The position numbers and the translations under genes were made by a program. This document shows positions 7,047 through 63,903 of a stretch of DNA of 64,000 bases, in pieces; position 1 is the first letter of the stretch, and each line of letters opens with the position of its first letter. The notes beneath the pieces were generated by a model. The model worked only from the letters and a program-made list of their open reading frames with translations. It was not told where the DNA came from and did no database searches. The DNA is from Somniosus microcephalus (Eukaryota), in NCBI GenBank assembly GCA_052327205.1, contig CM126226.1, positions 1,364,001 through 1,428,000 of the forward strand, read 5' to 3'.

Positions 7047-7540
7047 GTAAATGGAGATCCATCTGATTCGGGTTGCCATTGCACTTGGATGCCACGGCAC
7101 TATAGAGGCAGAACAAAAGTTGAAATCCTCAGCTTGTGATTTGTTGTGTGGCCCGAGTTGGCCTCGGTATTTAATCACGCCTCCGGTTTCTGTATTCATT
7201 TGTTTGGAAAGGTCAAAGATATGAGAGACTGTTCAGTTTACTGGCCTCCAATATATTCTTTGGAATTTGTTCAACTTCCACCTAATTTCCTGCTGCTCGG
7301 ATCCTCTTGCTCGCAAACTGCATTTGACACTTCCTGTTTCTGTTTAATTCCTTACTCCACCAACCAGGGCTCATTGCTGAGGCCTCCTTTCAAAAGAATT
7401 GAGGTGCAACTTCCAGAACAAAACTGGGGGTGAGGAAACCAATGCTTCTGCTCAGGATCCTGTGTAGAGCCAAACCGTGTAGGGCAAAGGGCAAGTGTTT
7501 CTGACTTTTGACCAATGACCTTTTATACAGAGACGTCGAA

Positions 7541-10388
7541 CTGTCTCTGGTCTGAGAATGAGGAGCACTGTCTCTGGTCTGAGAATGAGGAACACTGTCT
7601 CTGGTCTGAGAATGAGGAGCACTGTCTCTGGTCTGAGAATGAGGAGCACTGTCTCTGGTCTGAGAATGAGGAGCACTGTCTCTGGTCTGAGAATGAGGAG
7701 CACTGTCTCTCTGGTCTGAGAATGAGGAGCACTGTCTCTGGTCTGAGAATGAGGAGCACTGTCTCTCTGGTCTGAGAATGAGGAGCACTGTCTCTGGTCT
7801 GTGAATGAGGAGCACTGTCTCTGGTCTGTGAATGAGGAGCACTGTCTCTGGTCTGAGAATGCGGAGCACTGTCTCTGGTCTGAGAATGAGGAGCACTGTC
7901 TCTGGTCTGAGAATGAGGAGCACTGTCTCTGGTCTGTGAATGAGGAGCACTGTCTCTGGTCTGTGAATGAGGAGCACTGTCTCTGGTCTGAGAATGAGGA
8001 GCACTGTCTCTGGTCTGTGAATGAGGAGCACTGTCTCTGGTCTGAGAATGAGGAGCACTGTCTCTGGTCTGTGAATGAGGAGCACTGTCTCTGGTCTGAG
8101 AATGAGGAGCACTGTCTCTGGTCTGTGAATGAGGAGCACTGTCTCTGGTCTGAGAATGAGGAGCACTGTCTCTGGTCTGTGAATGAGGAGCACTGTCTCT
8201 GGTCTGTGAATGAGGAGCACTGTCTCTGGTCTGAGAATGCGGAGCACTGTCTCTGGTCTGAGAATGAGGAGCACTGTCTCTGGTCTGTGAATGAGGAGCA
8301 CTGTCTCTGGTCTGAGAATGAGGAGCACTGTCTCTGGTCTGTGAATGAGGAGCACTGTCTCTGGTCTGAGAATGAGGAGCACTGTCTCTGGTCTGTGAAT
8401 GAGGAGCACTGTCTCTGGTCTGAGAATGAGGAGCACTGTCTCTGTCTGAGAATGAGGAGCACTGTCTCTGGTCTGTGAATGAGGAGCACTGTCTCTGGTC
8501 TGAGAATGCGGAGCACTGTCTCTGGTCTGAGAATGAGGAGCACTGTCTCTGGTCTGAGAATGAGGAGCACTGTCTCTGGTCTGTGAATGAGGAGCACTGT
8601 CTCTGGTCTGTGAATGAGGAGCACTGTCTCTGGTCTGAGAATGAGGAGCACTGTCTCTGGTCTGTGAATGAGGAGCACTGTCTCTGGTCTGAGAATGAGG
8701 AGCACTGTCTCTGGTCTGTGAATGAGGAGCACTGTCTCTGGTCTGAGAATGAGGAGCACTGTCTCTGGTCTGTGAATGAGGAGCACTGTCTCTGGTCTGA
8801 GAATGAGGAGCACTGTCTCTGGTCTGTGAATGAGGAGCACTGTCTCTGGTCTGTGAATGAGAGCACTGTCTCTGGTCTGTGAATGAGGAGCACTGTCTCT
8901 GGTCTGAGAATGAGGAGCACTGTCTCTGGTCTTAGAATGAGGAGCACTGTCTCTGGTCTGTGAATGAGGAGCACTGTCTCAGGTCTGTGAATGAGGAGCA
9001 GTGTCTCTGGTCTGTGAATGAGGAGCACTGTCTCTGGTCTGAGAATGAGGAGCACTGTCTCTGGTCTGTGAATGAGGAGCACTGTCTCTGGTCTGAGAAT
9101 GAGGAGCACTGTCTCTGGTCTGTGAATGAGGAGCACTGTCTCTGGTCTGAGAATGAGGAGCACTGTCTCTGGTCTGTGAATGAGGAGCACTGTCTCTGGT
9201 CTGTGAATGAGGAGCACTGTCTCTGGTCTGTGAATGAGGAGCACTGTCTCTGGTCTGAGAATGAGGAGCACTGTCTCTCTGGTCTGAGAATGAGGAGCAC
9301 TGTCTCTCTGGTCTGAGAATGAGGAGCACTGTCTCTCTGGTCTGAGAATGAGTAGCACTGTCTCTGGTCTGAGAATGAGGAGCACTGTCTCTGGTCTGTG
9401 AATGTGGAGCACTGTCTCTCTGGTCTGTGAATGAGGAGCACTGTCTCTGGTCTGAGAATGCGGAGCACTGTCTCTGGTCTGAGAATGAGGAGCACTGTCT
9501 CTCTGGTCTGAGAATGAGGAGCACTGTCTCTCTGGTCTGAGAATGAGGAGCACTGTCTCTCTGGTCTGTGAATGAGGAGCACTGTCTCTCTGGTCTGAGA
9601 ATGAGGAGCACTGTCTCTGGTCTGTGAATGAGGAGCACTGTCTCTGGTCTGTGAATGAGGAGCACTGTCTCTGGTCTGAGAATGAGGAGCACTGTCTCTG
9701 GTCTGTGAATGAGGAGCACTGTCTCTGGTCTGTGAATGAGGAGCACTGTCTCTGGTCTGAGAATGAGGAGCACTGTCTCTGGTCTGAGAATGAGGAGCAC
9801 TGTCTCTGGTCTGAGAATGAGGAGCACTGTCTCTGTCTGAGAATGAGGAGCACTGTCTCTGGTCTGAGAATGAGGAGCACTGTCTCTGGTCTGTGAATGA
9901 GGAGCACTGTCTCTGGTCTGTGAATGAGGAGCACTGTCTCTGGTCTGAGAATGAGGAGCACTGTCTCTGGTCTGAGAATGAGGAGCACTGTCTCTGGTCT
10001 GAGAATGAGGAGCACTGTCTCTGGTCTGAGAATGAGGAGCACTGTCTCTGGTGGTCTGAGAATGAGGAGCACTGTCTCTCTGGTCTGAGAATGAGGAGCA
10101 CTGTCTCTGGTCTGAGAATGAGGAGCACTGTCTCTGGTCTGAGAATGAGGAGCACTGTCTCTGGTCTGAGAATGAGGAGCACTGTCTCTCTGGTCTGAGA
10201 ATGAGGAGCACTGTCTCTGGTCTGAGAATGAGGAGCACTGTCTCTCTGGTCTGAGAATGAGGAGCACTGTCTCTCTGGTCTGAGAATGAGGAGCACTGTC
10301 TCTCTGGTCTGAGAATGAGGAGCACTGCCTCTGGTCTGAGAATGCGGAGCACTGTCTCTGGTCTGAGAATGAGGAGCACTGTCTCTGC
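7541..10388. repeat. 27-bp minisatellite, ~105 units
   Basis: Unit ctgtctctggtctgWgaatgaggagca with +CT variants. Source of the many repetitive ORFs here. Confidence 0.97.
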
Positions 10389-12487: not shown

Positions 12488-13042
12488 AAAAACATAAGAA
12501 CGTAAGAAATAGGAGCAGGAGTAGGCCTAGTCAGTAAGATCATGGCTGATCTTTTACCTCATCTCCACTTTCCCGCACTATCCCCATATCCCTTGATTCC
12601 CTTAATATTCAAAAATCTATCGATCTCTGTCTTGAATATACGCAACAACTGAGCCTCCACAGCCCTCTGGGGTAGAGAATTCCAAAGATTCACCACCCTC
12701 TGAGTGAAGAAATTTCTCCTCATCTCGGTCCTAAATGACCGACCCCTTATTCTGAGGCTGTGACCCCTGGTTCTAGACTCCCCAGCCAAGGGAAACATCC
12801 TCCCTGCATCTACCCTGTCAAGCCCTGTAAGAATGTTGTACGTTTCAATGAGATCACCTCTCATTCTTCTAAACTCTAGAGAATACAGGCCTAGTCTACT
12901 CAATCTCTCCTCATAGGACAATCCCCCCATCCCAGGAATCAGTCTGGTGAACCTTGGTTGCACTCCCTCTATGGCAAGTAAATCCTTCCTTAGGTAAGGA
13001 GGCTCAAACTGTACACAATACTCCAGGTGTGGTCTCACCAGG
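12488..13042 (-). mobile_element. CR1 LINE 3' fragment
   Basis: 159-aa ORF RPHLEYCVQF...RRMRGDLIETY...RNFFTQRVVNLWNSLP. Confidence 0.92.
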
Positions 13043-13298
13043 CTTGTCTAAGTTGATTGCAAAACAGCACTAGTCTCTCCATCACAGAATGAATTGCCAT
13101 CCTTGTTAGAATTGCATGGGGTGTAAGAACTATAGAGGTAAGCACGCAAAGTCTTGGAGGGACTAATAAATGCTGCTGAAGACCCCCATTAGCGTGATTT
13201 TGCTGCATTCTTTGATATCTTCAGTTCTTTTTGATTTGTGAAGCAAGTATTGTGTCGATTTTCAGTGATTCACAAGTGATCTTGTTTATTTTTTTTAG

Positions 13299-22756: not shown

Positions 22757-22843
22757 GTTCTCCTCGACTTGTTTCCTGGACACAGACGGACAGATAACTT
22801 GTGAACATTGCCCCAGCGGTTACGGAGGCAGAAACTGCGAAAG
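22757..22843 (+). CDS. HSPG2: Perlecan exon 11, LE
   Basis: ccgctcag / gtatag. Reads FSSTCFLDTDGQITCEHCPSGYGGRNCE and ends in phase 2 (AG). Confidence 0.95.
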
Positions 22844-24971
22844 GTATAGTCCGCCAGACCCTCTTGTGTCTTACTTTGTCCTGACTCTTTTTATTGTACA
22901 TAATAGTTCCTAAGTGGGTATTCCAGGTAATTAGCCCGAGGGCCCACTTATTTAATCTAGGACTTGGAGCTGCTTCCAGAGTGGTGTCATTTCCATGAAC
23001 TAGCATCTCATTCAGATGTACTGACCCCTTCACCGGCTTGTAATATCTACAAGTTCTGCTTCACAGGACTATCTCGTTTACATTCATGTCGTTTACTCAA
23101 TGCCACAAGGCTTCAGTGTAAAATACCCCAAACTGGACCAATGTATTCAAATACAGTTACCATCCAGGAAACATTTTGTTCAGTCCTAACTCGTCATGCT
23201 CCGGTGAAAGGGTTCAATTTAACCGAGCCTGTATAAAGTGAATCCCTGAGTTGAGAGCAGCTTCTTTGTACTTTGACCAGTAATTCTGTGACTAAAAGAA
23301 GCTCGCTGTCACTCACTGACTCAGGGATTCAGCTTAAAAAAAACTAAGATCTGTTGTAAGATTTTCAGTTGAATTCTGCTTTCTTTGGTAGGAATACCAA
23401 CTTCAAAATTAAAACACGTTTTCTCGCAGAGTTGAGGACGTATTGTTTCAACGCACTCTTTATCAAGCTTGGATTACAATCCAGCCCAGATAGAGACGGG
23501 GTGAATTTCCCTTTTATCTGACGACATGGAACCCCAACGAGAATGAGTTTGGCTCATCTCGGTCATGGTGGATATGGGGATTTTAAAGTTTAGTTAACAG
23601 TAAAGCGTCTTTGTGCAGTGTGTCACTGCTTCCACTGGTGACTTCTTGCAAAGAAAGCAGGATAACATTGAAAACCCTTCTAAGGCAGAACTCCATTCTT
23701 TATCAGGAATATGACACCACGCTACCTCTGTTGAAAGCACACAACTCACATACAGCTTCTCCCAAACTCTCTACAGGGCATTGAGCATGCAGGAGAATGA
23801 GTTATAGAAGGATAATGTATGGAAAATCCCACCTCTTCACCTGTAGCAATACGAACAGAAAGGCACCACGTGATTTTATACAGCGACAATAAACCAGTGA
23901 TACAGGATGTCTTTAAAATATCTGTAGGAAACTGTCATTGTTGTATGGAGGGCATTGCTCTTCGATAATTCCATAACTGCCAGTGAGCAGAAACACAATG
24001 CTCAGTGGGGTGTAGTATATTGAGAATAGTTTAAGATGGAACTATATATACCCATGGAGACAAATAGGATCTTCTGCATGCTATATGTTGAGAGTCTGGG
24101 GAGAAGCCATGGTTTAAATAGTAGACATTACTGGAAGCAATAACTACCTCACTCCCTGAGCCAGAAGCTGGAAGGGCAGATGGCTGTCTGTTGAGCTGAT
24201 TTTAACAGCTGTTAGCCTATCCCCCATTCATCAACCATCACCATTGGGAATGTTTGGAGAACCTTGGGTTCATGCTAAATTTGTACAGTTTCTTGGAAGG
24301 AGAGGGGAATTCTTTTGGGCCACAATGGGAGGTACAGCAGATTCCTCGCCAGCCTCACATACAGCTGATGGCAGGGGCTTCCTTTTGACCAACACAGACC
24401 AAGATACTGGGCTTTCAGCTTCTGTAACAAGGGGTTTACAGTAACCAGATATGATGAGCCTTACTTACTGTGGAAAAGCCAGAGCTCTGCATGATTCAGT
24501 TGGAGTTGGTGCTTTGTGTTGTGGGAGCTCGTGTATAGTTGCAGGTTGATGATCTTCAGGTGCTTCTGGGTGGGCTTGGCCTCTCTCGTGTGTCTGTACT
24601 GACGGCTTCCTCTAGTGCTGGTGATTGCTCTGCACTTTTGTCTCTTTTCATGGTCCTTTCATAATTGCAAACTTTGATTCATGGGAAGCAGAATATGTAT
24701 ACTTGGTCTTAGGCTATTTAAAGAGTACAGCATTTATTTTTCACGCTGGGTGCAAGTTAGAGTTAATTGCAAACAACAAATTTATTAGCTTTGGCGCTTG
24801 TGTGTTATAGAGCTTGACTTCACTTGGAGCTTTCGACTAATGGTAGAACAGTACAAAAAACTTAGTTAAGTGAAATGAAGCTATATACAGTATTCTAAAT
24901 ATTATCACACCAGTGAGGTGGACATGACTGATGTTTAATGTCTGATGACATTGTCTTTGTGGCTAAATGTT

Positions 24972-25818
24972 CCCATCCCACAATCCATACAGTCTCCTCC
25001 ATCCCACGATCCATACAGTCTCCTCCATCCCACGATCCATACAGTCCACTCCATCCAACGATCCATACAGTCCACTCCATCCCACGATCCATACAGTCCA
25101 CTCCATCCCACGATCCATACAGTCCACCCCATCCCACGATCCATACAGTCTACTCCATCCCACGATCCATACAGTCCACTCCATCCCACGATCCATACAG
25201 TCCACTCCATCCCACGATCCATACAGTCCACTCCATCCCACGATCCATACAGTCCACTCCATCCCACGATCCATACAGTCCACTCCATCCCACGATCCAT
25301 ACAGTCCACTCCATCCCACGATCCATACAGTCCACTCCATCCCACGATCCATACAGTCCACTCCATTCCACGATCCATACAGTCCACTCCATCCCACGAT
25401 CCATACAGTCCACTCCATCCCACGATCCATACAGTCCACTCCATCCCACGATCCATACAGTCCACTCCATCCCACGATCCATACAGTCCACTCCATCCCA
25501 CGATCCATACAGTCCACTCCATCCCACGATCCATACAGTCCACTCCATCCCACGATCCATACAGTCCACTCCATCCCACGATCCATACAGTCCACTCCAT
25601 CCCACGATCCATACAGTCCACTCCATCCCACGATCCATACAGTCCACTCCATCCCACGATCCATACAGTCCACTCCATCCCACGATCCATACAGTCCACT
25701 CCATCCCACGATCCATACAGTCTACTCCATCCCACAATCCATACAGTCTAATCCATCCCACAATCCATACAGTCTACTCCATCCCACAATCCATACAGTC
25801 GACTCCATTCCACAATCC
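24972..25818. repeat. 26-bp minisatellite, ~32 units
   Basis: Unit ccatcccacgatccatacagtccact, with diverged edge copies. Confidence 0.97.
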
Positions 25819-26009
25819 AGTTAGTGTATAGGCTTCTCTGTAAACGGTATTGCTGATTTTCCTCCCATGTTGATTTAATTTAGCTCTCTCTCTTACCTGC
25901 CCCCACTCAGAAACTCTTGGAGACACGGTATGCAAATCGCCATTCCATAGCCAGGCGTGTCCCTCATCTCCCGTAAAACAGCTGCTCTGAGAGATTGGAA
26001 GGGCTCTGT

Positions 26010-28085
26010 TTGCCTGCTTATCTACTCATTCCTGGTCAGGCAGTTTTGCTGAGATCTGAAAGATGAGCAGTGGCAAATATTTAAAGAAATATTCCAAACT
26101 TCTCAACGAATGTGCATTCCATTGAGAAATAAAAACTCCACGGGAAAGGTGATCCAAAGGAGTTAAGGATAGTCTTAGATTGAAAGAAGTGGCTTATACT
26201 GTTGCGTAGAATAGTATTAAGCCTGAGGATTGGGAGACCTTTGGAAACCAGCAAAGGATGGCCAAAAAATTGATAAAAAGGGAGGAAATAGAATGTGAAT
26301 AAACTAGCAAGAAATATGAAAACAGACTGCAAGAGTTGCTATATGTATGTAAAAAGGAAAAGAGTAGCGAAAGTAAGCATTGGTCCCTTAGAGGCTGAGA
26401 CAGGAGAAATTATAATGGGGAATATGAAAATGGCAGAGACTTTTAACAAATATTTTGTGTATCTCTTCACAGTAGAAGACACAAGGCATACCAAAAATAG
26501 TGGGTAATGAGAGTGAGGAACTTAAAGTAATTAGTATCATTAGAGAAAAAGTACTAGAGAAACTAATGGGACTGAAAGCCGACAAATCCCCTGGACCTGA
26601 TGGCCTACATCCTCAGGTTCTAAAAGAGGTGGCTGCAGAGATAGTGGATGCATTGGTTGTGATCTTCCAAAATTCCCTAGATTCTAGAAAGATCCCAGCG
26701 GATTGGAAGGTAGCAAATGTAACACCACTATTCAAGAAAGGAGGGAGAGGGAAAACGGAACTACAGGCCAGTTAGCCTGACATCAGTCGTGAAAATACTG
26801 GAATCCATTATAAAGGAAGTGGTAACAGGGCACTTAAAAAATCATAATACGATTAAGCTTTATGAAAGGGAAATCGTGTTTAACAAACTTATTAGAGTAT
26901 TTTGAGGATGTAACTAGCAGGGTATATAAAGGGGAACCAGTGGATGTAGTATAGTTGGATTTCCAAAAACCATTCGATAAGGTGCCACATAAAAGGTTGC
27001 TACGCAAGATAAGGGCTCATGGGGTTGAGGTATTATAATAGCATGGATAGAGGATTGTTTAATGGACAGAAAACAGAGAGTAGGGATAAACGGGTCTTTT
27101 TCAGGTTGGCAGGCTGTAACTGGTGGGGTGCTGCAAGGATCAGTGTTGGGGCCTCAGCTATTTACAATCTATATTAATGACTTGGATGAAGGGACCGAGT
27201 GCAATGTATCCAAGTTTGCTGATGATACAAAGCTAGGTGGGAAAGTAAGCTGTGAGGAGAACACAGAGCCTGTAAAGGGATATAGACAGGTTAAGTGAAT
27301 GGGAAATAAGGTGGTAGATGGAGTATAATGTGTGGTTATTCAATTTGGTGGGAAGAATAGATAAACAGAATATTTTTTAAATGGTGCGAAACTATTAAAT
27401 GTTGGTGTTTAGAGAGATTTAGGTGTCCTCGTACAGGAAACACAAAGTCAGCATGCAGGTGCAGCAAGCAATTAGGAGGGCAAATGACATGTTGGCCTTT
27501 GTTGCAAGGGGTTGGAGTACAAGGGTAAGGAAGTCTTACTACAATTGTACAGGGCTTTGGTGAAACCACACCTGGAGTACTGTGCACAGTTTTGGTCTCT
27601 ATCTGAGGAAGGACATACTTGCCTTGGAGGCGGTGCAACGAAGATTTATCCCTATGAGGAGAGATTGAGTAGATTGGGCCTATACCCTCTGGAGTTTAGA
27701 AGAATGAGAGGTGATCTCATTGAAACATGTAAGATTCTGAGGGGGATTGACAGGGTCGATGCTGAGAGGGTGTTTCCCCTGGCTGGAGAGTCTAGAACTA
27801 GGAGGCATAGTCTCAGGATAAGGGGTAGGCTATTTAAGACTGAGATGAGGAGGAATTTCTTCACTGAGGATTGGGCCTCTGCCCCAGAGGGCTGTGGATG
27901 CTGAGTCGTTGAGTATATTCAAGGCTGAGATCGATAGATTGTTGGACTCTAGGGGAATCAAGAGATATGGGGATCGGGCGGGAAAGTGGAGTTGAGGTCC
28001 AAGATCGGCCATGATCTTATTGAATGGCGGAGCAGGCTCGAGGGCGCCGTATGGCCGACTCCTGCTCCTAATTCTTATGTTCTTA
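26010..28085 (+). mobile_element. CR1 LINE ORF2 (RT) remnant, ~2 kb
   Basis: KSPGPDGLHP, WKVANVTPLFKKG, QGSVLGPQLFTIYINDL and KFADDTKL motifs. Frameshifted, with 3' UTR. Confidence 0.95.
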
Positions 28086-28461
28086 TTAACCCTGTGTTGC
28101 ACCTCCCCGGTACAGCAGGGTACAGCCTGACTGGGGCCACCTCCAGCTGTTATCTGCCAGTGGGGAACCACCATCTTTAACACGGCAATCCATCTGACAA
28201 TTTACAGCAGCTGAAACAATGATGTGTTTTAAATGGTTGGTACAGTAGGAGATATTTTTCCTCCAGGACCTGGTTTTTTAATCCAGCCCATGGTGATGAC
28301 TGAAAGTTCCCTCTCTCTGCCAAGTACAGGAAACTTTGTGTTATCCGGAGGCTAAATGTCCGGCAAGCTCGAGCCACCGGCAAAAATCAGGAGCTGTTTT
28401 GTTAGGTTTTCTTTCTTCTCGTGGCTTTTTTTTTCCAACAGTCAGGCTCTGCAAAGTCTCT

Positions 28462-28553
28462 GTAGCTTAGCAACAGCTTTAGAGAGACGCTTCCAAGGTA
28501 CGGGCCGACTGTTTAGAAGCTGTTGCTAAGCAACAGTGTTTGTTGTCAGATAC
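28462..28553. promoter_or_regulatory. Cluster of RFX X-box-like motifs
   Basis: GTAGCTTAGCAAC (28462), GTTGCTAAGCAAC (28522) and GTTGTCAGATAC (28542) in a CpG-richer unique segment. Confidence 0.55.
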
Positions 28554-28959
28554 GGAGATGAAAAGCTCCGTACGCTTCAACATTAACACTGGTGTGTCCG
28601 GCAGTTTTGAGGGAACGGCAACAGCTCGGTCCCGTCGGTGCCGGATAGCCCGAAGTTTCCTGTAGAACCTCTGGTGAAGTGAATTGGGGCAGTTTCAGTC
28701 AACCTCCTAATGGGCATGGAGTTCTAGAACAAAACCGTGTGGTGCCCAATTGGTAGTCTTACTGCAAGAGATCATAAGGATAGCTTGAGTAGGAAATAGA
28801 GCGTTTACACTGACGTATAGGGGTTCTGAGGTTGAGTTAAGTTGTGGACTAGAGGTGTAGCTGGCTTGGGCTTGCTCGACGGTCATTCTAGTGTCCAAGG
28901 CATATTAGCTTCCTCAAATCTGACCCCTCATCTTAATGAGCACTTCTAGGGCCCGTCAG

Positions 28960-29490
28960 CCCCTTGACCGAGCTATCCAATTACTCTCACTCCCCTGTCC
29001 TTTCCCCACAGCGCTGCACATTTTTCCCCTTCGAGTATTTATCCAATTCACTTTTAAAAATTAATATTGAACCTGCGTCCACTGCCCTTTCAGGCAGCAC
29101 ATTCCCGATCATAACAACTGGCTGTGTTAGAAAATTCTCCTCATCTCCCCTCTGGTTCTTTTGCCAATTACCTTAAATCTGTGTCCTCTGGTTACCGACC
29201 CTCCTGCCAGTGGAAACAGTTTCTCTTTATTTACTCCATCAAAGCCCTTCACAATTCTGAACACCTCTATTAAAGCTCCCCTTAACCTTCTCTGCTTTAA
29301 GGAGAACAACCCCAGCTTCTCCAGTCTATCCATATAACTGAAGTCCCTCATCCCTGGTACCATTCTAGTGAATATTATCTGCACGCTCTCTAAGGCCTTG
29401 ACACCCTTCCTAAATCGTGGTGCCCAGAATTAGACACCACTCTCGCTGGGGCCTAACTAGTGATTTGTAAAGGTTCAGCATAACTTCCTT
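28960..29490 (-). mobile_element. CR1 3' fragment
   Basis: DRLEKLGLFSLKQRRLRGALIEVFRIVKGFD. Confidence 0.88.
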
Positions 29491-29739
29491 TTTTAACAAT
29501 TTTTACACAGTGTCTGTTCCAGCGTTCTACCCTCATGTAGAATTGTATCCTTGCAGCCATGTGATTTTGTAAGCACAGTAGTGATGTTTCTGTAAGCTGC
29601 AGTGCCCTGCAATTGTCTCAATATATCTCCCTCCCTGTAGTTAGGTAGCAATGAGTTGTTGGTGTGCAATTGGCAGCTTTCCCGGGTTAAATAACAAAGG
29701 ATCACTCGGTTTCAGCCTTGGCTCAGTGGGTTTCCAGCC

Positions 29740-29910
29740 AAGAGGGCAGACGAGGCCTCGGTTTAATGTCTCATTCAAGAGACAGCAACTGCGACAGTGC
29801 GGCACTCCCTCAGTACTGCACTGAAGTGTCGGCCTGGACTTTTGTGCTCAAGTCTCTGGATGGGACTTGAACCTTCTGACTCAATGGCGAGAGTGCTGCC
29901 CACTGAGCTG
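29740..29910 (-). mobile_element. DeuSINE 5' fragment
   Basis: Matches the 1030..1487 copy. Confidence 0.75.
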
Positions 29911-31951
29911 CAAGTCAGGATTATAATGCTTGCTCTGTACTATATGGCCAAAAGCTGTGGCACCTCACCAGGCAGAGTGTAGAGACTGATGGACGTATAA
30001 ATACTAGCTGTGGCATGGTGCCCTCGCTGTTAAAAAGTCAATTTAAGTACCTAACACAGAGACAAGGGTTGAGGAATCAATTTTTTTTTTAAAGGCATGG
30101 GAAAGTCTTGAGGGAGTGGTCCTGTTAAAAGTGATCTCCCCAGTTATGATAAACTCACCTGAAATGTACTTGAATTTTTTTTCCTTGGACGACTGTTTTG
30201 CAGCCGCCGTTGGACCCACAAGTCACGTCTCACAGTCTCCCCGTTGGGCTGCTCTGGTGACATCAAGTAAGGGAAGGTGTCCCAGAGTGGCTCCATTGCA
30301 AAGGTCTATTCCCCAACTACAGATTGATGACCCTGGGTTGGAGGGCTTGAGGGTGCTTTGAAATTGTCCGTCCCCCCCCCCCCACCCCCCCCAGTGGAGC
30401 TGCTGCAGGAGACTCCGTGATTTGCATCAGTGGAGCGGCTCAGCGGGGATGGGGACCCTCCGTTAGCTTTGGTTGAGTCGCTAGCACCGTGTGTGTGTGG
30501 TTAGTGTTCTTTTTCTTGTCACGTGTTGGTATCTGCCCACACTTCTCTAATGATTATTTAATACCTTTCTTGGGACAGTGGTAGAAATATTTCTTTCAGT
30601 TGCACCTGTTCTCACTGATCGAGAATGAAGAAAGTGGTGCTACCAGCATCAATCATTTGTGAAGTTAAAGAGGTACTTTTCATATATATGCACAAAAAGT
30701 CAAAGGATATGAATAAAACCCATTCCACCCATTGTAGCTCATCCTTCTCATACCCTAGCTCTCCCATTATAACATCCAGATGTGTTGTGCATGTTTTTAT
30801 TTTTGTTTCTACCACCGTGTCTGGGGAGCTTTCACTGAGTGAAGGGAAAGCCCGGCTGTACTGCGGCGAGGAGACAATTTGTACAAGTGAAGACTCTGAC
30901 CTGTCTGTACTGTTAACCCTCAGGACAGACTCCAGTCAGTCCTTTGTTAGTGGTTTAATCCTCACCACAGCTGACACCTTCATCCAAATCAACTGGAAAA
31001 TGGGCTTTGTCTTCAAAGCCTGATTTATAATGTCGCAGGTAATGGGAGAGATTTCAGGCAGTCTTCGTAACACTATGTAAAATCTACTGGTCACTCAAAT
31101 TGGAAAAGCTCGCTGTATATGTTGTGCTTTTTATTCATTACCTTGCAGTTGGATGGTCAGCTCTATTGAGATGAGAAATATACACTCTTGGAATAGGGAC
31201 TGGATTTGCCAAGTTAGTGGTACAAAGCTGCTGGTGAATGGAGGCGAGTCTCTGGGTCCCAGCGTTCTCGCTCTCGAGTTGCTGCTTCTGTTTGTTTCAA
31301 GTCGTGATTGGGTTGTTTTGAATTACCTGTTTATAAATCAGTGACGTTCGAGGCGGTTTGTATTCTTTCAAGTGCTGCCTTCCACGTGCCCGAGAGCTCA
31401 GTTTGCTTTCCAGCTTATGACAGCCTGCAAAATGTAGTAACATTCAGGATGAGAGTTTGTTTTTTGGGATGGTAGTAACTTTTGGAGGGTTGCATTGAGG
31501 TGAGGAGCGGGTGGGAGGAGATTTTGGTGCAGGATTAATAACTGGCCTTCATGCACAGACTGGTCTGGGGCTTTTGCTTTAATCGCTGCCTAATCAAGCT
31601 CTTGCTGCTCACTAACCTGCTCACTAACCTAGGGCTACTTGTTGGTCAGGGCTTGCGGGCATTGCAGGTTGTTGCGTGAAGCCTTTCCACACTGACACAC
31701 AAGTCATGTATGTACAAAAAAAAATACTTGGCTGAAACATGTCTATTGTTGTAAACGATAGAGTTTTCACCACCCAGTCTTTGAGCTCAAGTAAAACAGC
31801 TCAAAGAAACCTGCCTAAAATGAAACCGATTTAAACTAACCAGCTGGCTGCCAATCGGAGGCCAAATTGTCAAATTCCATGTTCAATATTTCTTTAAAGA
31901 AAGAAAAGATGTTTTTTGTTTGCTGACCACGACCTTTAATCCTTTGAAAAG

Positions 31952-33947
31952 AAATCTGACAGAATTCTGCAAAGTCTGGCTCCAGCCAGTAAAGCTAGAA
32001 TCTAAGGAGTTGATGCCAGTTGACTGTCAGAAGATGACTGAAGTTGGGCCAGAAGACCCGGGTGGCAATACAACGGAGACTGTCACTCGGAGACTGTCAC
32101 CTTCGGTGAGCAGTAACACCACTGGGGATGGAGGAAGAATGGGCAACACTTCCAGTGCAGCTACAGTTACCGTGCCAACAAGAAGAACCACAATTCTGTC
32201 AGTGGCCAAGACCACCTTGAAACGGAGGACCTATAATTTCAGGCACCTGATGAAAGCATCTCTCATCAGCTTCAACAGAAGACTAACAATGTTGGAGGAC
32301 ACAGGTTTGGACCTTAAAGACGGCTTCAAGCATTTACAGAAAAGGCAAGATAATTTAAGCTTGCAGCTGAAGAACATCACCCGTATGTTGTCCGCTCCCC
32401 CCAAAGACAGACTGATTTCCGACCTCCATTGGAAGTATGTAGATGTTGGTGACAAGTTGACCGCTTTGCAAGTACGACTGGAGATTCTTATTGATGGTTT
32501 TGCCGCCTTGGCCGAGGAAATCTCTGAGATGAAAAAAAGGAGGACTTCGCTTACCAATAGTGATCAACCAGGCCTTGGGAAAATTACCACTAGCTCTCCT
32601 AGGAATCTGTTCACCAAGTACTCCAGAGGACGTTCCACAACCAGATCGCAAGTGAGGCCAACACCTTATGAAAATAACGACAAAACTTTCAGGTTTGTTT
32701 CCACAAGACCTTCTGCTAAAAGTCGCTCTCTCAGCACAGCAGTGCAAGTAAAAAGCAAAGCATTTCGCTTTCACAGAAAAGCAGCTTCTACTGTTGATCC
32801 CGTGACATCTGTACGAACACGTGTCAAACCCACAGCCTCTCCTGTGCAACCCACAGGCAAAGCCCAGGTTAACGGGAAATCTGTAGTGCCTGCTAATTAT
32901 GGGCCTAAAAAGCCAGCTCTTTCTGGGAAAGGCAGAGCTGTTGTCAGGCAGATCCCCACAACAGCTATCTCAACAATAACAGTGAAAGCTGCAGCCACAC
33001 CTGAACTAGTCTCGTCTACAGCATTTATATTGCGTTCAAATGTGACTATGGTCATCACAGAGCCTAAGGATTTGACCACTCAACCAGTTCCGACAGCTGT
33101 GCTCGAGAAACCCACAAAACCACGTCTACGAGTATCGGGAATGAAAGTAAAAACTGGATACGTAGAGACTGTAAATAATGCACCGGTCCCAGCTAGGGCT
33201 AAGGGGAAAACACATTCCAGTGGTAAAACTGTCGCAGAGTCCAAGGATAAAACAAAACTTGGTAAAAATGGAACTGGGCAGTCCAAGGATAAAACAAAAC
33301 TTGGTAAAAATGGAACTGGACAGTCCAAGGATAAAACAAAACTTGGTAAAAATGGAACTGGACAGTCCAAGGCTAAAACAAAACCCGGTGGTAAAACAAC
33401 CACAGAACATCTTGATACTACTGTGAAACCCTCTGCAGCACCAGCACGTAACCGAGGTGGGTCCCAAAGGCATAAAATCAAGCACCCATTATCAAAAGAT
33501 AGTAACGTACCATCCATCCGCAGGGGAGGAAAGGCCTTCTCTACATCAGGTGCGACCACATTGTCCCTCGTGACGGCACAGCCTAAAATTGCAGACAAAG
33601 CCAGAGTGCTGCCAACATTGGCATCTGCCAGGAAGATCTCCGAGAAGATAGAAACCTGGCTGACAGTCGCCACAATGCTCCCAGCAACTGCAGCCTCACT
33701 GAAAAGATCAGAAAATCAACGAATAAGTGGGTCACGTTCTAGAAAATGTGACCGCGATGATCCCCCAAGGAACAAACTGGCAGGAAGCAGAAAGAGAAAG
33801 ACTAAAAAAGTGACGGCACTAGACATTCTGCAGCTCCTGCGAGGAGGGCATCAGCACTATTCCAACTCCAATGGGAGAGTCAAGGACCTGCCCCTCTATA
33901 TCACCCTGGGCCGCCTCGCCATACCGATAAAAATCATCCCAGATTGA
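31952..33947 (+). CDS. Long intronic coding exon (664 codons): coiled coil plus Thr/Ser/Lys-rich tail. Candidate alternative terminal exon of perlecan, or last exon of a nested gene
   Basis: 2-kb stop-free frame with no TE character. Putative branch point ctgac, then cctttaatcctttgaaaag acceptor in phase 2. Tandem TGA TGA stop. Confidence 0.75.
33238..33384 (+). repeat. Coding 42-bp tandem repeat (SKDKTKLGKNGTGQ, ~3.5 copies)
   Basis: Frame-preserving repeat inside the long ORF. Confidence 0.92.
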
Positions 33948-35783
33948 TGAGCTTCTCTGCTGGCGTTCAGAGTTCATCGTAATGAAAAATTGGTGAACAG
34001 ACACTTCCATCTAGTAACTGGTCTTGTGCTCGAGAATCTTATTTGCCGAAGTGTAAGGTTCACATTCACTGAGAACTGTGCGAGATTCTTTTGCACTTAT
34101 CTGTATAAAATGACGTACAAGGTAAATGTCAAACATTTTGGCGGTGTTATGTAATGTAGTTTGTGAAAGTAAAATGTAGCTCATTTCAAACCGTAATGAG
34201 GTGCAAATAACTACCTCAATTCAAGTGACGCACTTGGTTTCCTTGCATTTGTTCTATTGGAATAATCTGTACAGAAGCCTGTCTTTTTAATAATTTATTG
34301 AATTCAACAAGCTAGTCTCTCTTTGATTCAAATATTCAATCATTGCACCCAAAGGAAATGGGTGTCACATTGCACCTCCACACATTCTTCAGATTAACTT
34401 TAACCGAGGTTGTTTTCAGTGGAGTGCTTGTGGTTCACCTGCTGAAGGATTGTGAATCGTTCCACTTAGATCGAATGTCTGTCTCGTTGTATTTCATGAC
34501 CTGCGTCCCCGAGACTGACGTAGATTTAACAATCAGTTCATTACAGTGGTCAACGAGCCACATCCTTGTGGTCAGGTCGGCAGTGTGTGTGAGTACAGGA
34601 ACTCCACGGCAGCGCTAAGGTAAAAAGAGACTGAATTTCAAACTCTTCTGATTCTGGGTGCACCTGGGCTCAACCTCGAGCTCATTTGATTTCACTCGCC
34701 CATCTCCCCTCGATGTCGGTCGTTTGCTTACACGATCAATGCTGTTTTGACTTTTTTTCTCTAAGAGTACTTAAATCCTTTTTATTAACTGGGATTGAAA
34801 TCTCCCTTTTGAAAGTTAGCGCTGCCAAATAGAAAATGAAACCCAATAACATCACCTTTAGCTGTTTAAATGTAGCACTGCATTTAATAACCTCTTGCTG
34901 TGTTACTAGGCTAACTGTCCGCAGCACTGAAGACAGTCTATAAAACGCAAATCTATTTTGGATTCATGATTTTTTAAATCATCACCCCAAAGAAGTAACC
35001 TATTTTCACCATTCCGTATTCTCCATGTATCATCGTCCAAAGAGAAGGCGGAGGTTAGTGCAAGTCACTTCAGGGCTTTGTACTGTCTGATCCTGTGCTA
35101 ACATGTTGGTCGGATGCTCTTCCCAACACCTGTTTTATAGAAGGCCATCTTCTGGGGTACCTCAGCTATTTATCTCCCATCTGACTGTTATCCATGAAGA
35201 GAAAGTTCCTTCCGTCATTGTAATCAGTAAGTTCACACCTTTAAGCTATGTGGTGGTATATTTTCCCCCATCTCTAACTTAAGGGGGAAATAACTGACTA
35301 GTGTAAAGCAGAGAACAGCATTTTATATTTGCATCCAGCTTGATGCTAAAATTAGCAAACAAAAGAAAATATCCCTCCGTCTTTGTGCTTTACAGACATT
35401 CTATGAAGTTGTATTTGCTTTTAGCAAGTCTTCAATCCAGTGCTTGGCTGACGTACTTTTCACACTTTCAGCTGACTGAGGTCCAGGTGTGTGTAGGTTT
35501 TTTCTTCTAAGAGGTGACGGTCCTGGTTTTCACGATCCTCATTTAATGTAATGGATCCTCCTCAGTCACTCAAAACATTTGCTTCTGTTGTTTATTGACT
35601 TTGACCGATTTCCAGAGGTGTTAATTCTGGTCCAGGCCAGCTGTAGCTGAGTAATTCAATGGAGGGCCAGACCAGAAGGGTCACTCTCGAAACTCCATCT
35701 AAAGAAGCCTCGAGTTTGCATCCTCCGAGAAGCACACCTCTGCCTCCTAGTTATCAGGAGAATAGGGACCACTATTATGAATG

Positions 35784-35887
35784 ATTATTGCCCAGAGGAA
35801 TTTCACCCCATTGGCTATTGGACTTTCTCATTCTCAGCATTTCCAACCTTTATAGATGATCCCATTCACACACATATTTTGAAAAGG
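35784..35887 (+). repeat. ~100-bp direct repeat, copy A
   Basis: Near-identical to 36978..37075. Confidence 0.9.
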
Positions 35888-36977
35888 TTGGGAGAGCCAC
35901 ATTTAAGAGAGAATTTTTCTGTATCCTCCAACACTACAGAACTTACTCCAGCTCTAGTCACATTTGTTCAGCTTTGGGACTCCACATTTGCTCTGATTAT
36001 CGACCAACATCAACAGAAGAAGTGACAAAACTGTTGAAAGCTGCAACCAATGGCCAATTGATGTAACATTGACCACAATTCACCCTTCAGCTTGCTCCAG
36101 TGCCAGTGCAGATCGGTTGGTCCTGATCAGTGGAGTTTGTGCAATATCCCTATTTACAGAATCAGCAGGAAATAATGTTGGTGAGTGGAGACTTTCTGCT
36201 GATACAGTAAACCAAGGAAGTCTTTCTCAGGACCTACCTGATGGACTACTTTCAATCAACATTCTTGCTGTGGTAGGTTTCTCCAAGGCCATGGTGGGAT
36301 TTGCACAGATTGCTGAAGTAATCTCTCTTGCACCAAGATAGCGCCAGCTTTTTAGTGATGCTGGCATTCACAAGTCTGCCGTAATTTACGTTTGACCCCT
36401 CAGATTCTCTCGAAGCAGCCGCTCAATAAAACCGTGGAATATTAGGAAGACTGGGCTTTCTTGTAAAATAGGAAAAGCCCCAGCTACAGCAATCTCTGCC
36501 CTTCATTGGAGCTCACGTCCACTCACTGCCCGGTACAGCCATGCTACTGGTGAATTACCTCACGGTGGGTCACTGCCCCTTGCCCATCAAAAGTGGCCGC
36601 CTGCTGAAGCTGCCTGTAGGTGGGTGGGTCTGTTACAAGAACCTGCAAATCAGTGAAATATGTGGTGCAACATAGGTCCAGCCATTTGTATCGTAGCCAT
36701 GATCACCGGGCGTGCCTGGCTCAGGGCCTCGGGGGACGGGGCGGTGGTGGGTGAGCAACATTTACATTTTAAAGGCACCTTCCAGCCACCCTCAACCAGC
36801 AACTTTTCAAACCGTTTTTATCCTGTTCTTCCTTGGACCACGGGCTCACTTACACTGCGGCAAAGCAAAACATCAGTCTTGCCGTAACGCACTCCAGATG
36901 GTGGAGTTGGGCCATGGAATATTTGGGCCAGAGTGTTTGATTTACTCCACCTCCTATACCTTGACACTTCTTCACTA

Positions 36978-37811: not shown

Positions 37812-38730
37812 AGTTCGCAGATGACACGAAAATTGGTGGGGTGGTAAATTGCGAGGAGGAAAGCCTCAGGCTACAGGACGATATAAACGGGTTGGTCAGA
37901 TGGGCGGAAAAGTGGCAAATGGAATTTAACCCTGAAAAGTGCGAGGTGATGCATTTTGGACGGACAAATAAGGCAAGGGAATACACAATGAGTGGTAGGA
38001 CCCTAGGAAGTACAGAGGGTCAGAGGGACCTTGGTGTACATGTACATAAATCCCTGAAGGCAGCGGAACAGGTAGATAAGGTGGTTAAAAAGGCATATGG
38101 GATACTTGCCTTCATTAGCCGAGGCATAGAATATAAGAGCAGGGAGGTTATGATGGAGCTGTACAAAACGCTGGTGAGGCCACAGCTGGAGTACTGTGTG
38201 CAGTTCTGGTCACCTCACTATAGGAAGGATGTGATTGCTTTGGAGAGGGTGCAGAGAAGATTCACCAGGATGTTACCTGGGATGGAGCGCCTCAGCTATG
38301 AAGAAAGACTAAACAGGCTGGGGTTGTTTTCCTTGGAGCAAAGAAGGCTGAGGGGGGACCTGATTGAGGTGTACAAAATAATGAGGGGCATAGATAGGGT
38401 AGATAAAGAGGAACTTTTCTCCTTAGTGGGGGGGTCAATAACAAGGGGGCATAGATTCAGGGTAAGGGGCAGGAGATTTAGAGGGGATTTGAGGAGGAAC
38501 TTTTTCACCCAGAGGGTGGTTGGAATGTGGAACTCAATGCCTGAAAGGGTGGTGGAGGCAGGAACCCTCACAACATTCAAGAAGCATTTGGATGAGCACT
38601 TGAAATGCCATTGCATACAAGGCTATGGACCAAATGCTGGAAAATGGGATTAGACTGGACAGGGATGGATGGGCGGCGCAGACACGATGGGCCGAAGGGC
38701 CTCTTTCTGTGCTGTAAAACTCTATGACTC
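37812..38730 (+). mobile_element. Young 5'-truncated CR1 LINE
   Basis: Uninterrupted 270-aa C-terminal part of ORF2, beginning just after FADDTK, plus 3' UTR. Confidence 0.95.
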
Positions 38731-46555: not shown

Positions 46556-47365
46556 CATAACATAGAAACATAGAAGATAGGAGCAGGAGTAGGCCATTCG
46601 GCCCCTCTAGCCTTCTCCGCCATTCAATGCGATCATGGCTGATCATCCAAGTTCAGTACCTGGTCCCTGCTTTCTCCCCATACCCCTTGATCCCTTTAGC
46701 CTTAAGAAATATATCCAACTCCTCCTTGAATATATTTAATGAATTGGCCTCTACTGCCTTCTGTGGTAGAGAATTCCACAGGTTCACCACTCTTTGGGTG
46801 AAGAAATTCCTCCTCATCTCTGTCCTAAATGGCTTACCCCTTATCCTTAGACTGTGACCCCTGGTTCTGGATTCCCCGACCATCGGGAACATCCTCCCTG
46901 CATCTAGTCTGTCCAGTCCTGCCAGAAGTTTCAATGAGATCCCCTCTCGTTCTTCTGAACTCCAGCGAGTACAAGCCCAATCGACCCAACCTCTCCTCGT
47001 ACGTCATTCCTGCCATCCCAGGTATCAGCATGGTGAATCTTCGCTGAACTCCTTCCATGGCAAGAATATCCTTCCTCAAATAAGGCGACCAAAACTGCGC
47101 ACAATACTCAAGATGTGGTCTCACCAAGGCCCTGTACAACTGCAGCAAGACATCCTTGTTCTTGTACTCAAACCCTCTCGCTACGAAGGCCAACATACCA
47201 TTTGCTTTCTTAACCGCCTGCTGCACCTGCATGCTTACCTTCAGCGACTGGTGCACAAGGACACCCAGGTCTCGTTGCGCTTCCCCTTCTCCCAGTCTAT
47301 TGCCATTCAGATAATAATCTGCCTTCCTGTTTTTGACACCAAAGTGGATAACCTCACATTTATAA
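46556..47365 (-). mobile_element. CR1 3' fragment
   Basis: KCEVIHFG...YRALVRPHLEYCAQFWSP, with a (tctatgtt)n tail. Confidence 0.92.
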
Positions 47366-47919
47366 ACATCTGGATTTCTACCACGGGTTAAGTTCCTGTG
47401 TGACCGTTGATGAGAAGTAGCTGAGCATAGTCGGTCTGCACAGTACTTACACTTGCAATGACAGAAAAAAATTACATTGTCCCATGCTGAAATACCAACT
47501 AGAAATAACAAATTATGATTTGGTTGTAACGTGAGTTGTCACAGTGAAACGATAGCAGGGTAGACGGTGCTTGAGGCGTGAAGCCAATCTCTTAGAGATT
47601 TGTTCTTGAGTGAAGTGTTTAGTGAAAAGGTTCGTCTTCAAGTGTTGCAGGATAAAGATGAATCTGTTGGTGTTATTAAAAGAAAAGGCTAGTGTTGCGG
47701 CTGATTACAGGGGGCGATCCTGGCCTCGGTGAACTCCGGGGGCTTTTGGAAGAGCTTCCTGTTGGCACTGTGCTGGTATGGGAAGCTCAAACTGAGCGAC
47801 AGTGGCCTTTGACATTTCATGTGAAATGTTTTGGGGCATATTTGGGTGACATGAAAAATGGCGTACAATAAAAATTTGAAGGAGGAGACCATTAACGAGG
47901 GTTTATGGTCAGAACAGTA

Positions 47920-49890: not shown

Positions 49891-49940
49891 GTGTGCTCCA
49901 GGTTACTCTGGGAATCCCATATATGGACAGCGTTGCACTA
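49891..49940 (+). CDS. HSPG2: Perlecan exon 12, end of LE module
   Basis: ttgttgcag / gtaagt. Reads CAPGYSGNPIYGQRCT and continues exon 11 in phase. Confidence 0.93.
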
Positions 49941-57295: not shown

Positions 57296-57324
57296 ATACT
57301 GGTCCTGGACTAGTTCAAAGGACA

Positions 57325-57915
57325 AGTTTAAAACACTAGTTAGGCCTCAGCTAGAGTACTGCGTGCAGTCCTGGTCACCACATTACAGGAAAGATGTGAT
57401 TGCACTAGAGAGGGTACAGAGGAGATTTACAAGGATGTTGCTGGGAGTAGAGAATCTTAGCTATGAGGAAAGACTGGATAGGCTGCGTCTGTTTTCCTTG
57501 GAACAGAGGAGGCTGAGGGGAGACCTTATTGAGGTGTATAAAATTATGAGTTGCCTAGATAAAGTGGATAGAAAGGACCTATTTTCCTTAGCAAAAGGGG
57601 TCAAAAACCAGGGGGCACAGATTTAAAGTAATTGGTGGAAGGTTTAGAGGGGATTTGAGGGGAAATTTCTTCACCCAGAGGGTTGTGGGGGTCTGGAACT
57701 CACTGCCTGAAAGGGCGGTAGAGGCAGAAACTCTAACCACATTTAAAAAGTACTTGGATGTGCACTTGGGATGCTGTAACCTGCAGGGCTACGGACCAAG
57801 AGCTGGGAAGTGGGATTAGGCTGGATAGCTCTTTGTTGGCTAGCGTAGACACGATGGGCCGAAATGGCCTCCTTCCGTGCTGTAACTTTCTGCGATTCTA
57901 TCTATGATTCTATGA
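57325..57915 (+). mobile_element. CR1 3' fragment
   Basis: WSPHYRKDVIALERVQRRFTRM, with an (attctatg) tail. Confidence 0.9.
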
Positions 57916-59369: not shown

Positions 59370-60103
59370 GGGTGGAGGCTGGCGATCGGGGCTGTGGGGG
59401 GAGGCTGGCGATCGGGGCTGTGGGGGGAGGCTGGCGATCGGGGCTGTGGGGGGAGGCTGGCAATCGGGGTGGAGGCTGACGATCGGGGCTGTGGGTGGAG
59501 GCTGGCGATCGGGGCTGTGGGTGGAGGCTGGCGATCGGGGCTGTGGGGGGAGGCTGGCGATCGGGGCTGTGGGTGGAGGCTGGCGATCGGGGTGGAGGCT
59601 GGCGATCGGGGCTGTGGGTGGAGGCTGGCGATCGGGGCTGTGGGGGGAGGCTGGCGATCGGGGCTGTGGGTGGAGGCTGGCGATCGGGGTGGAGGCTGGC
59701 GATCGGGGCTGTGGGGGGAGGCTGGCGATCGGGGCTGTGGGGGGAGGCTGGCGATCGGGGCTGTGGGGGGAGGCTGGCGATCGGGGCTGTGGGGGGAGGC
59801 TGGCGATCGGGGCTGTGGGGGGAGGCTGGCGATCGGGGTGGAGGCTGACGATCGGGGCTGTGGGTGGAGGCTGGCGATCGGGGCTGTGGGTGGAGGCTGG
59901 CGATCGGGGCTGTGGGGGGAGGCTGGCGATCGGGGCTGTGGGTGGAGGCTGGCGATCGGGGTGGAGGCTGGCGATCGGGGCTGTGGGTGGAGGCTGGCGA
60001 TCGGGGCTGTGGGTGGAGGCTGGCGATCGGGGCTGTGGGTGGAGGCTGGCGATCGGGGCTGTGGGTGGAGGCTGGCGATCGAGGCTGTGGGTGGAGGCTG
60101 GCG
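59370..60103. repeat. G-rich minisatellite with 26/19-bp units
   Basis: gggKggaggctggcgatcggggctgt units with recurrent 7-bp-deleted variants. Confidence 0.95.
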
Positions 60104-62340: not shown

Positions 62341-63903
62341 GGCTCCCGGCTCCCGCTGCGCATTGACCTCCCGGCTCCCGCTGCGCATTGACCTCCCGGC
62401 TCCCGCTGCGCATTGACCTCCCGGCTCCCGCTGCGCATTGACCTCCCGGCTCCCGCTGCGCATTGACCTCCCGGCTCCCGCTGCGCATTGACCTCCCGGC
62501 TCCCGCTGCGCATTGACCTCCCGGCTCCCGCTGCGCATTGACCTCCCGGCTCCCGCTGCGCATTGACCTCCCGGCTCCCGCTGCGCATTGACCTCCCGGC
62601 TCCCGCTGCGCATTGACCTCCCGGCTCCCGCTGCGCATTGACCTCCCGGCTCCCTCTGCGCATTGACCTCCCGGCTCCCTCTGCGCATTGACCTCCCGGC
62701 TCCCGCTGCGCATTGACCTCCCGGCTCCCGCTGCGCATTGACCTCCCGGCTCCCGCTGCGCATTGACCTCCCGGCTCCCGCTGCGCATTGACCTCCCGGC
62801 TCCCGCTGCGCATTGACCTCCCGGCTCCCGCTGCGCATTGACCTCCCGGCTCCCTCTGCGCATTGACCTCCCGGCTCCCGCTGCGCATTGGCCTCCCGGC
62901 TCCCTCTGCGCATTGACCTCCCGGCTCCCTCTGCGCATTGACCTCCCGGCTCCCTCTGCGCATTGACCTCCCGGCTCCCGCTGCGCATTGACCTCCCGGC
63001 TCCCTCTGCGCATTGACCTCCCGGCTCCCGCTGCGCATTGACCTCCCGGCTCCCGCTGCGCATTGGCCTCCCGGCTCCCTCTGCGCATTGACCTCCCGGC
63101 TCCCTCTGCGCATTGACCTCCCGGCTCCCGCTGCGCATTGACCTCCCGGCTCCCGCTGCGCATTGACCTCCCGGCTCCCGCTGCGCATTGACCTCCCGGC
63201 TCCCTCTGCGCATTGACCTCCCGGCTCCCGCTGCGCATTGACCTCCCGGCTCCCGCTGCGCATTGACCTCCCGGCTCCCGCTGCGCATTGACCTCCCGGC
63301 TCCCTCTGCGCATTGACCTCCCGGCTCCCTCTGCGCATTGACCTCCCGGCTCCCTCTGCGCATTGACCTCCCGGCTCCCTCTGCGCATTGACCTCCCGGC
63401 TCCCTCTGCGCATTGACCTCCCGGCTCCCGCTGCGCATTGACCTCCCGGCTCCCGCTGCGCATTGACCTCCCGGCTCCCGCTGCGCATTGACCTCCCGGC
63501 TCCCGCTGCGCATTGACCTCCCGGCTCCCGTTGCGCATTGACCTCCCGGCTCCCGCTGCGCATTGACCTCCCGGCTCCCGCTGCGCATTGACCTCCCGGC
63601 TCCCTCTGCGCATTGACCTCCCGGCTCCCTCTGCGCATTGACCTCCCGGCTCCCTCTGCGCATTGACCTCCCGGCTCCCGCTGCGCATTGACCTCCCGGC
63701 TCCCTCTGCGCATTGGCCTCCCGGCTCCCGCTGCGCATTGACCTCCCGGCTCCCGCTGCGCATTGGCCTCCCGGCTCCCGCTGCGCATTGACCTCCCGGC
63801 TCCCGCTGCGCATTGACCTCCCGGCTCCCGCTGCGCATTGACCTCCCGGCTCCCGCTGCGCATTGACCTCCCGGCTCCCGCTGCGCATTGACCTCCCGGC
63901 TCC
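62341..63903. repeat. CpG-rich 25-bp minisatellite, ~62 units
   Basis: Unit ctcccggctcccKctgcgcattgac. Confidence 0.97.

Follow-up and report, generated by a model that had tools for sequence, protein, structure and literature searches.

Among the short forms given by perlecan genes, the S form of UNC-52 keeps domains I-III. Short isoforms of UNC-52 in C. elegans are recorded in the excerpts of PMC6266596 that were at hand, and so are the human 'miniperl' and the HMC-1 mast-cell variants, which like the form discussed here are short products of the perlecan gene arising by RNA processing. These human short forms are domain I or domain V fragments and, within the excerpts, none adds a conserved module of 500-700 residues in the middle of domain III; likewise, the portions of the two perlecan reviews that were available name no variants other than fragments of domain I or of domain V. 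LaNt alpha31, from LAMA3, is also a truncated basement-membrane protein made from the promoter of the parent gene, with laminin-EGF repeats followed by a unique C-terminus and with intronic polyadenylation, and it competes with the full-length form (PMC9788559, accessible passages). According to these passages LaNt, with its LN domain and short tail, depends on the retention of an intron, whereas here the exon lies 9.1 kb downstream, the tail has 664 residues and a coiled coil is gained, not lost. The present form does not belong to the LaNt proteins: its host is perlecan, the exon is separate and spliced, and gene model P0002 has no LN domain. Laminin chains share the order of L4/LE rod, cysteines and coiled coil, an analogy and not a homology, since the laminin coiled coil measures 561-591 residues (PMC9788559, same passages) versus ~113 here, where there are no LN or LG domains. 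Nor is the tail a laminin chain, given its helical region of ~113 residues and no Pfam match to a laminin coiled coil.

Public gene models (chiPu_0009953, the Acipenser FKN15 models and GOODEAATRI_006797) have the same joint and tail; in them the gene stops with the tail, and none is presented as an isoform. No description of the tail exon was found among the paper listings and abstract openings searched or in the keyword passages of PMC4859157, PMC6266596, PMC9010944, PMC9788559, PMC13581211 and PMC5887144.

Here we analyse a stretch of 64,000 nucleotides of Somniosus microcephalus (contig CM126226.1, positions 1,364,001 to 1,428,000, forward strand; hereafter the window), and we regard an ancient alternative last exon of HSPG2, giving a short form whose tail may oligomerise, as the likely explanation of the whole. 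A large, dedicated and deeply conserved vertebrate perlecan exon with an uncharacterised module appears to be new, and its mechanism is of a known kind.

Reading frame, exon and host gene

A first-pass annotation, made from the letters alone, had pointed to a same-strand frame of 664 codons ending TGA TGA inside a 27-kb perlecan intron. Translation of 31953-33947 (+) confirms it, giving 664 residues and a stop, with a second TGA at 33948-33950; the stop-to-stop frame opens at 31824 and the first Met is exon residue 21. The intron measures 27,047 nt, in keeping with the 27 kb stated, and lies in perlecan domain III between 22758-22843 and the canonical exon 49891-49940. The label 'exon 11' given to the upstream exon is local to the window, where by the tblastn positions of the domain III exons it is the 11th, and does not number the gene. 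The donor, the aaag acceptor, the ctgac, phase 2 and the Arg at the joint are all present as described. The features are:

22758..22843, + strand: last shared perlecan exon, a laminin-EGF repeat after the second L4/laminin-B domain, with Cys3-Cys6
31923..31951, + strand: branch-point-like ctgac, short pyrimidine tract and AG acceptor, read from the letters, with the splice seen in X1 (see below)
31952..33947, + strand: alternative terminal exon, coding part, with one base completing Arg, 664 codons and the stop
49891..49940, + strand: competing canonical exon (CAPGYSGNP..., Cys7-Cys8), leading to the remaining domain III and domains IV-V

The phase-2 donor at 22843 (AAAG/gt) is common to both endings, and either acceptor completes an Arg codon. 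The acceptor aaag/A at 31951/31952, with ctgac ~26 nt upstream, is weak, having a purine at -3 and a short pyrimidine tract.

With the base make-up of the intron, the chance of a stop-free run of 664 codons is p ~1e-16, or ~4e-13 over both intron strands, and when the ORF was shuffled 2000 times the longest run was 198 codons. The frame is single-copy in the genome (6.4 Gb): the whole protein gave 1 match, in a stricter first look, and the coiled coil gave 1 match at E<=0.1.

Judged by its sequence, the host gene is perlecan (HSPG2). With shark and sturgeon perlecan as tblastn queries, domain III exons were located at ~583, 760, 2110, 4725, 6861, 10672, 13299, 14036, 14502, 18492 and 22758-22843 and, beyond 49891-49940, at ~54381, 55764 and 58726; they share the strand of the 664-codon frame and are mostly 68-87% identical to Chiloscyllium perlecan. 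At least three LDLa exons (PF00057; C25:1324751, 1326400 and 1329178, + strand, with 150 of 799 candidates scored) sit 35-40 kb upstream of the window on the same strand, and for gene model P0002 Pfam lists four LDL-receptor repeats, two Laminin_B and EGF_laminin. A laminin-G exon (PF00054) at C25:1657227-1657490 (+ strand, E 6.7e-12) lies 229 kb downstream, and its position suggests that it belongs to the same perlecan gene. For SEA, which belongs to domain I, none of the 7 matches is on C25, and Pfam lists no SEA for P0002 either.

Four minisatellites occupy perlecan introns of the window (7540-10387, 24973-25819, 59370-60103 and 62343-63904), with units of 27, 26, ~26 and 25 nt in up to 104 copies, and most of the long ORFs of the window arise from them. 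Fragments like the C-terminus of a LINE reverse transcriptase, which we take to be of CR1 type, occur on both strands (12559-13047, ~27120-27901, 37814-38653, 46834-47538 and ~57297-57623), and SINE-like copies of ~250 nt, 96-98% alike, are found at 39192, 44934 and 47921.

Transcripts at the joint and at the 3' end

Four runs (X1, X11, X12 and X3) were compared over positions 30000-36900. X1 is a probable RNA assembly (its RNA status is a guess) from a relative shark ~96% alike, and X11 comes from a very close relative and consists of 68 stranded raw reads, largely duplicates. An index look-up listed no RNA run for the ORF, which counts neither for nor against its expression.

The junction from 22843 to 31952 that had been predicted from the letters was found in the relative shark. 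Contig X1-1 (386 nt, depth 3), the one contig of one run to show it, aligns from 31948 and has 26 loose letters at its 5' end, 25 of which match 22814-22839, with 17 matching at the next-best place in the window; the AAAG shared at the joint fits either side, and the junction spans 9.1 kb. By this junction together with the frame, the exon is spliced in frame from the shared upstream donor and carries its own stop. All six X1 contigs lie within 31948-34519 and cover 1816 of 2572 bases. Depth in X11 is 2.3-9.5 in 7 of the 9 ORF bins; of the 21 bins elsewhere, 19 are empty and two have depths of 0.15 and 0.52. The first mates of X11 map to the minus strand, i.e. to sense RNA under the usual protocol. 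X11 and X1 have almost no cover across 30000-31847. X12 and X3 cover the intron too, with reads in 26 and 21 of the 30 bins respectively, so their cover cannot separate the exon from pre-mRNA, and in the two raw-read runs no splice junction rose above the reporting threshold. We are highly confident that the exon is joined to perlecan as a spliced isoform.

The 3' side of the transcript comprises:

33948..34950, + strand: probable 3' UTR, with X1 contigs to 34519 and variant poly(A) signals at 34104, 34168 and 34939

The first canonical AATAAA after the stop is at 36425, in agreement with the first-pass annotation, and the variant signals are nearer. The further proposal of a 3' end near 36.4 kb is not supported by the reads: X11 has no cover beyond the 33696-33926 bin and X1 none after 34519. 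Since X1 and X11 stop this early although X3 shows that the 36.4-kb region is conserved enough for reads to align, an end near 34.5-35 kb is the likelier, and our data suggest that the transcript ends there. Position 36425 was dropped as a supported poly(A) site, the X1 and X11 cover ending far short of it, and among the loose ends listed within 30000-36900 none was a poly(A) end.

Homologues and parts of the tail

An unindexed search of 1.84 billion representatives returned 17 homologues, among them sturgeon and Goodea models in which the orthologous exon leads on to the tail, a model from Astyanax that is a separate partial gene, and unnamed stand-alone ORFs; the same C-terminal motif ends 16 of the 17. 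Other protein searches recovered at least one protein among 8000 candidates (the Chiloscyllium model, in a search for longer proteins), 2 of 284 (sturgeon only) and at least three among 7999, with most known members missed, and being this insensitive they say little on RefSeq isoforms or tetrapods. No tetrapod or lobe-fin tail was recognised among the homologues found, in searches too insensitive to show absence. A metagenome scan gave one locus among 216 candidates, L002, which is the 3' half of a teleost-type tail and in whose 4 kb of downstream sequence no perlecan exon was seen by eye. At 1036-1840 of L002 the tail ends at 1038 and AATAAA occurs ~620 and 800 nt past the stop, a spacing that fits a short 3' UTR.

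Five gene models in three species run from the perlecan exon to the tail via the same donor: Chiloscyllium GCC31495.1, Acipenser MGH0121395.1, MGH0119153.1 and P0021, and Goodea MEQ2177750.1 (GOODEAATRI_006797). They are predictions, not transcripts, and all are named 'hypothetical protein', the Acipenser ones being FKN15 models. Four of the five enter at the start of the cysteine pair; P0021 enters later and has duplicated segments. The Chiloscyllium punctatum model (chiPu_0009953; 1837 residues) follows perlecan to the same exon and then the tail, which is 58% identical to that of Somniosus and has the same junction and last residue. P0002, P0004, P0020, P0021 and P0009 are public models that stop perlecan at the tail exon, and the rest of perlecan may be annotated there as a separate gene.

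A tree of 21 tails holds three rows from cartilaginous fishes, the sturgeon and 17 teleost-type rows, with none from outside these groups; it follows the species tree, and the Somniosus row groups with the bamboo shark (P0020, P0021 and P0023-P0042, near-duplicates or fragments, were left out). The cartilaginous and bony fishes split more than 400 million years ago and, going by these alignments, the exon is ancient, being present in cartilaginous fishes, sturgeons and teleosts. The reading of the first-pass annotation as a phase-2 alternative terminal exon of perlecan is borne out by the X1 contig, by the gene models in three species and by the deep conservation of the tail.

In the stand-alone ORFs the position of the first Met shifts between species, and by eye there is no evident signal peptide. 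Nine of them reach past the joint, where the residue, again by eye, is Arg in 7 of 9 and Ser in 1 of 9, as follows from an intronic ag plus one exonic base. Just 5' of the joint the teleost ORFs P0005, P0010, P0014, P0022 and P0043 have a (P/S)Dx(x)VLTLR-like stretch, which is probably a conserved branch point and pyrimidine tract and not protein; as a branch point it would suggest conserved regulation of the acceptor. That most database copies are stand-alone ORFs would fit a same-strand gene nested in the intron under its own promoter and perhaps with a start at Met21, encoding an intracellular, basic coiled-coil protein for which the perlecan joint is a minor by-product. The tail is very basic (pI 10.8) with runs like nuclear signals, and intron 22844-30000 lies beyond the read comparison, which starts at 30000. 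However, the perlecan exon is the sole upstream partner seen, conservation begins at the acceptor and takes in Cys6, ahead of a first Met whose position varies, and the stretch 30000-31847 is nearly free of X11 and X1 cover, and we judge a nested gene improbable.

The alternative last exon encodes the following parts:

31968..32027, + strand: conserved cysteine pair C6 and C25, standing in place of the canonical Cys7-Cys8 of the laminin-EGF loop
32028..32216, + strand: Ser/Thr-rich spacer, with 36% S+T in residues 31-88 and three N-glycosylation sequons
32217..32555, + strand: residues 89-201, a heptad coiled coil whose end is a conserved basic cluster, K-R/K-x-R
32556..33797, + strand: disordered linker of 414 residues, with K+R 20% and S+T 23%
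33798..33944, + strand: conserved C-terminal module with a short helix (LDILQLL) and a predicted beta-hairpin ending LGRLAIPIKIIPD, at low pLDDT

In the cysteine numbering of laminin-EGF repeats C6 and C25 replace Cys7-Cys8, and on this reading of the sequence no cysteine would be left unpaired at the joint; we infer a disulfide C6-C25. Acidic Ser-Gly motifs are typical of glycosaminoglycan sites, and one is present in 13 of the 16 bony-fish rows that include the spacer and in 0 of 2 shark rows. Over ~110 residues the heptad of the coiled coil is unbroken and Leu at its core positions is invariant, and helices are predicted at 89-116, 121-146 and 150-201 (10-residue pLDDT means 58-91). Regional identity is highest in the coiled coil and the C-terminal motif. 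For the coiled coil it is 101 of 113 (89%) to Chiloscyllium, at least matching perlecan's own exons (mostly 68-87%), 54 of 113 to sturgeon and 42-50 of 113 to three teleost-type proteins, and the last 20 residues are identical to Chiloscyllium in 20 of 20 positions and to bony fishes in 14-15.

The linker behaves differently: with 6 of 21 single-change codons synonymous, versus ~30% expected under neutrality (on the 27 differences listed, from a table with 138 further rows), its residues drift at about the neutral rate among close sharks. Both listed indels within the ORF (2 of 2) are multiples of three, versus 1 of 7 outside it. In the relative sampled in X3, the intron stretches 30487-31031, 31166-31345, 35163-35712 and 36152-36400 are 93-96% alike, about as the linker, so that among close sharks the exon does not stand out by nucleotide identity alone; for the region of the C-terminal motif the figure is 98.5%. 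A 42-nt repeat (14 residues) is present in 3.5 copies in the linker at 33238-33384, where X3 has a form 60 nt shorter and Chiloscyllium no clean repeat. An [F/Y/L]Q[L/V/I]xPP motif is seen mid-linker in all 16 teleost-type tails that are long enough (P0005-P0008, P0010-P0019, P0022 and P0043), and shark and sturgeon rows are without it.

The near-neutral linker, the low depth and the weak acceptor would fit an exon that serves only to shut down full-length perlecan through premature termination or decay, the tail itself doing nothing. Selection on the protein is needed to keep a frame of 440-730 codons open while, from shark to bony fishes, its coiled coil stays 37-48% identical and its last 20 residues 70-75% identical, and we consider a pure shutdown exon highly improbable.

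None of the families in Pfam, the PDB or the Atlas accounts for any part of the tail. Pfam gave no family at E<=1 and, when 16 aligned members were compared, no more than three of them matched generic coiled-coil families, and weakly; a PDB search by sequence gave eight matches, all at E>=0.27, and Foldseek against the PDB gave none. With VIA-align wide only generic coiled coils were matched (best Z 6.8), in a comparison that barely probed the C-terminal module. In the Atlas a Fibin-like cluster had a feature score of 0.75, below the lead threshold, and there was no Pfam match to Fibin (PF15819); the teleost tail as query gave no usable Atlas match. Two matches in a viral fold library at E<=0.001 were discarded as disorder noise, both having TM<=0.10.

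Some LINE ORF1 and envelope proteins carry coiled coils in a single large exon. The tail, one large exon with a coiled coil, resembles some of these, as it would if a transposon or viral ORF had landed in the intron. Against such a relic stand the single copy, the lack of a Pfam match, viral fold TM-scores that are all <=0.11 and the orthologous position in three lineages; as a description of its present state we give this reading almost no weight. A very old domestication may still lie behind the exon. The earlier description of the frame as not belonging to a transposable element accordingly holds on the single genome match, the lack of a Pfam family and viral folds amounting to noise.

A proposed short form of perlecan

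Under the alternative-last-exon reading, donor 22843 would be joined either to the weak acceptor at 31952 or to 49891, the latter giving full-length perlecan; the proximal choice would bring cleavage and polyadenylation inside the intron, with the junction as shown in the relative. The short product would keep the N-terminus, the LDL-receptor repeats, the first Ig domain and two of the three L4 modules with laminin-EGF rods, would lose domains IV and V, with the rear two-thirds of the protein replaced by the tail, and, by the shark and sturgeon models, would have ~1,850-1,950 residues. At the junction six paired cysteines would remain, to which the new exon would add its own pair. The first-pass annotation had put forward domains I, II and part of III with a novel tail and without IV-V; gene models and junction support this architecture, and a full transcript from domain I to the tail, like the secretion that was part of the claim, is a deduction.

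Export would proceed through perlecan's own signal peptide, and it is fairly likely that a short perlecan is translated and secreted. Human perlecan truncated by frameshifts in domain III is retained intracellularly (PMC6266596, in the excerpts seen), and for this reason secretion of the short form cannot be assumed. Both of the lost domains have binding partners: nidogen and fibronectin for domain IV; integrin, dystroglycan, nidogen and fibulin-2 for domain V (PMC6266596, same excerpts). Bundling through the coiled coil may unite from two up to four chains, with three the likeliest number, in a multi-arm heparan-sulfate proteoglycan; the chances of such self-assembly we put slightly above even. 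The basic linker could tether the product to acidic matrix components, glycosaminoglycans among them, and the invariant hairpin at the C-terminus may be a docking or nucleation site. The switch would then trade a basement-membrane cross-linker for a clustered form that binds growth factors.

The main rival within the isoform reading, possible if rather unlikely, is that the isoform is real and its tail does not oligomerise, the coiled coil binding another partner or folding back while a proprotein convertase cuts at the basic cluster after residue 193 and frees the basic tail; tail and C-terminal motif would then act as a bioactive fragment, as endorepellin does from domain V. Most of the 21 aligned proteins have a K-R/K-x-R/K-type cluster after the coiled coil, with K194 and R197 nearly invariant, and tail release would fit the contrast between a freely drifting linker and the fixed last 20 residues. 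The convertase consensus is R-x-K/R-R, a form that most rows do not strictly have, and a heptad of ~110 residues with invariant core Leu argues against a tail that does not oligomerise.

Returning to the alternative last exon, fishes probably make a second, short perlecan, since the hidden final exon occurs in shark, sturgeon and bony fishes. The tail exon explains why gene models end perlecan in the middle of domain III, and its module of cysteine pair, coiled coil and terminal hairpin motif has no family in Pfam or the PDB. Perlecan, a major proteoglycan of basement membranes, is treated in vertebrates as one five-domain protein, and a conserved second ending makes of it a switch at a single donor between the full cross-linker and a short form with an uncharacterised module of 500-700 residues; knockdowns, antibodies and expression data in fish read differently if the target lies before or after the joint. 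Finally, we raise tentatively, as a doubtful proposal, that jawed fishes make a second, laminin-shaped multi-arm proteoglycan with a new docking module, which arose before the split of sharks and bony fishes and was lost in tetrapods. Given such a loss, the second form may belong to a fish-specific matrix such as the fin fold, the fin rays or the notochord sheath, and if the proposal is true, fish perlecan phenotypes would mix two different proteins.
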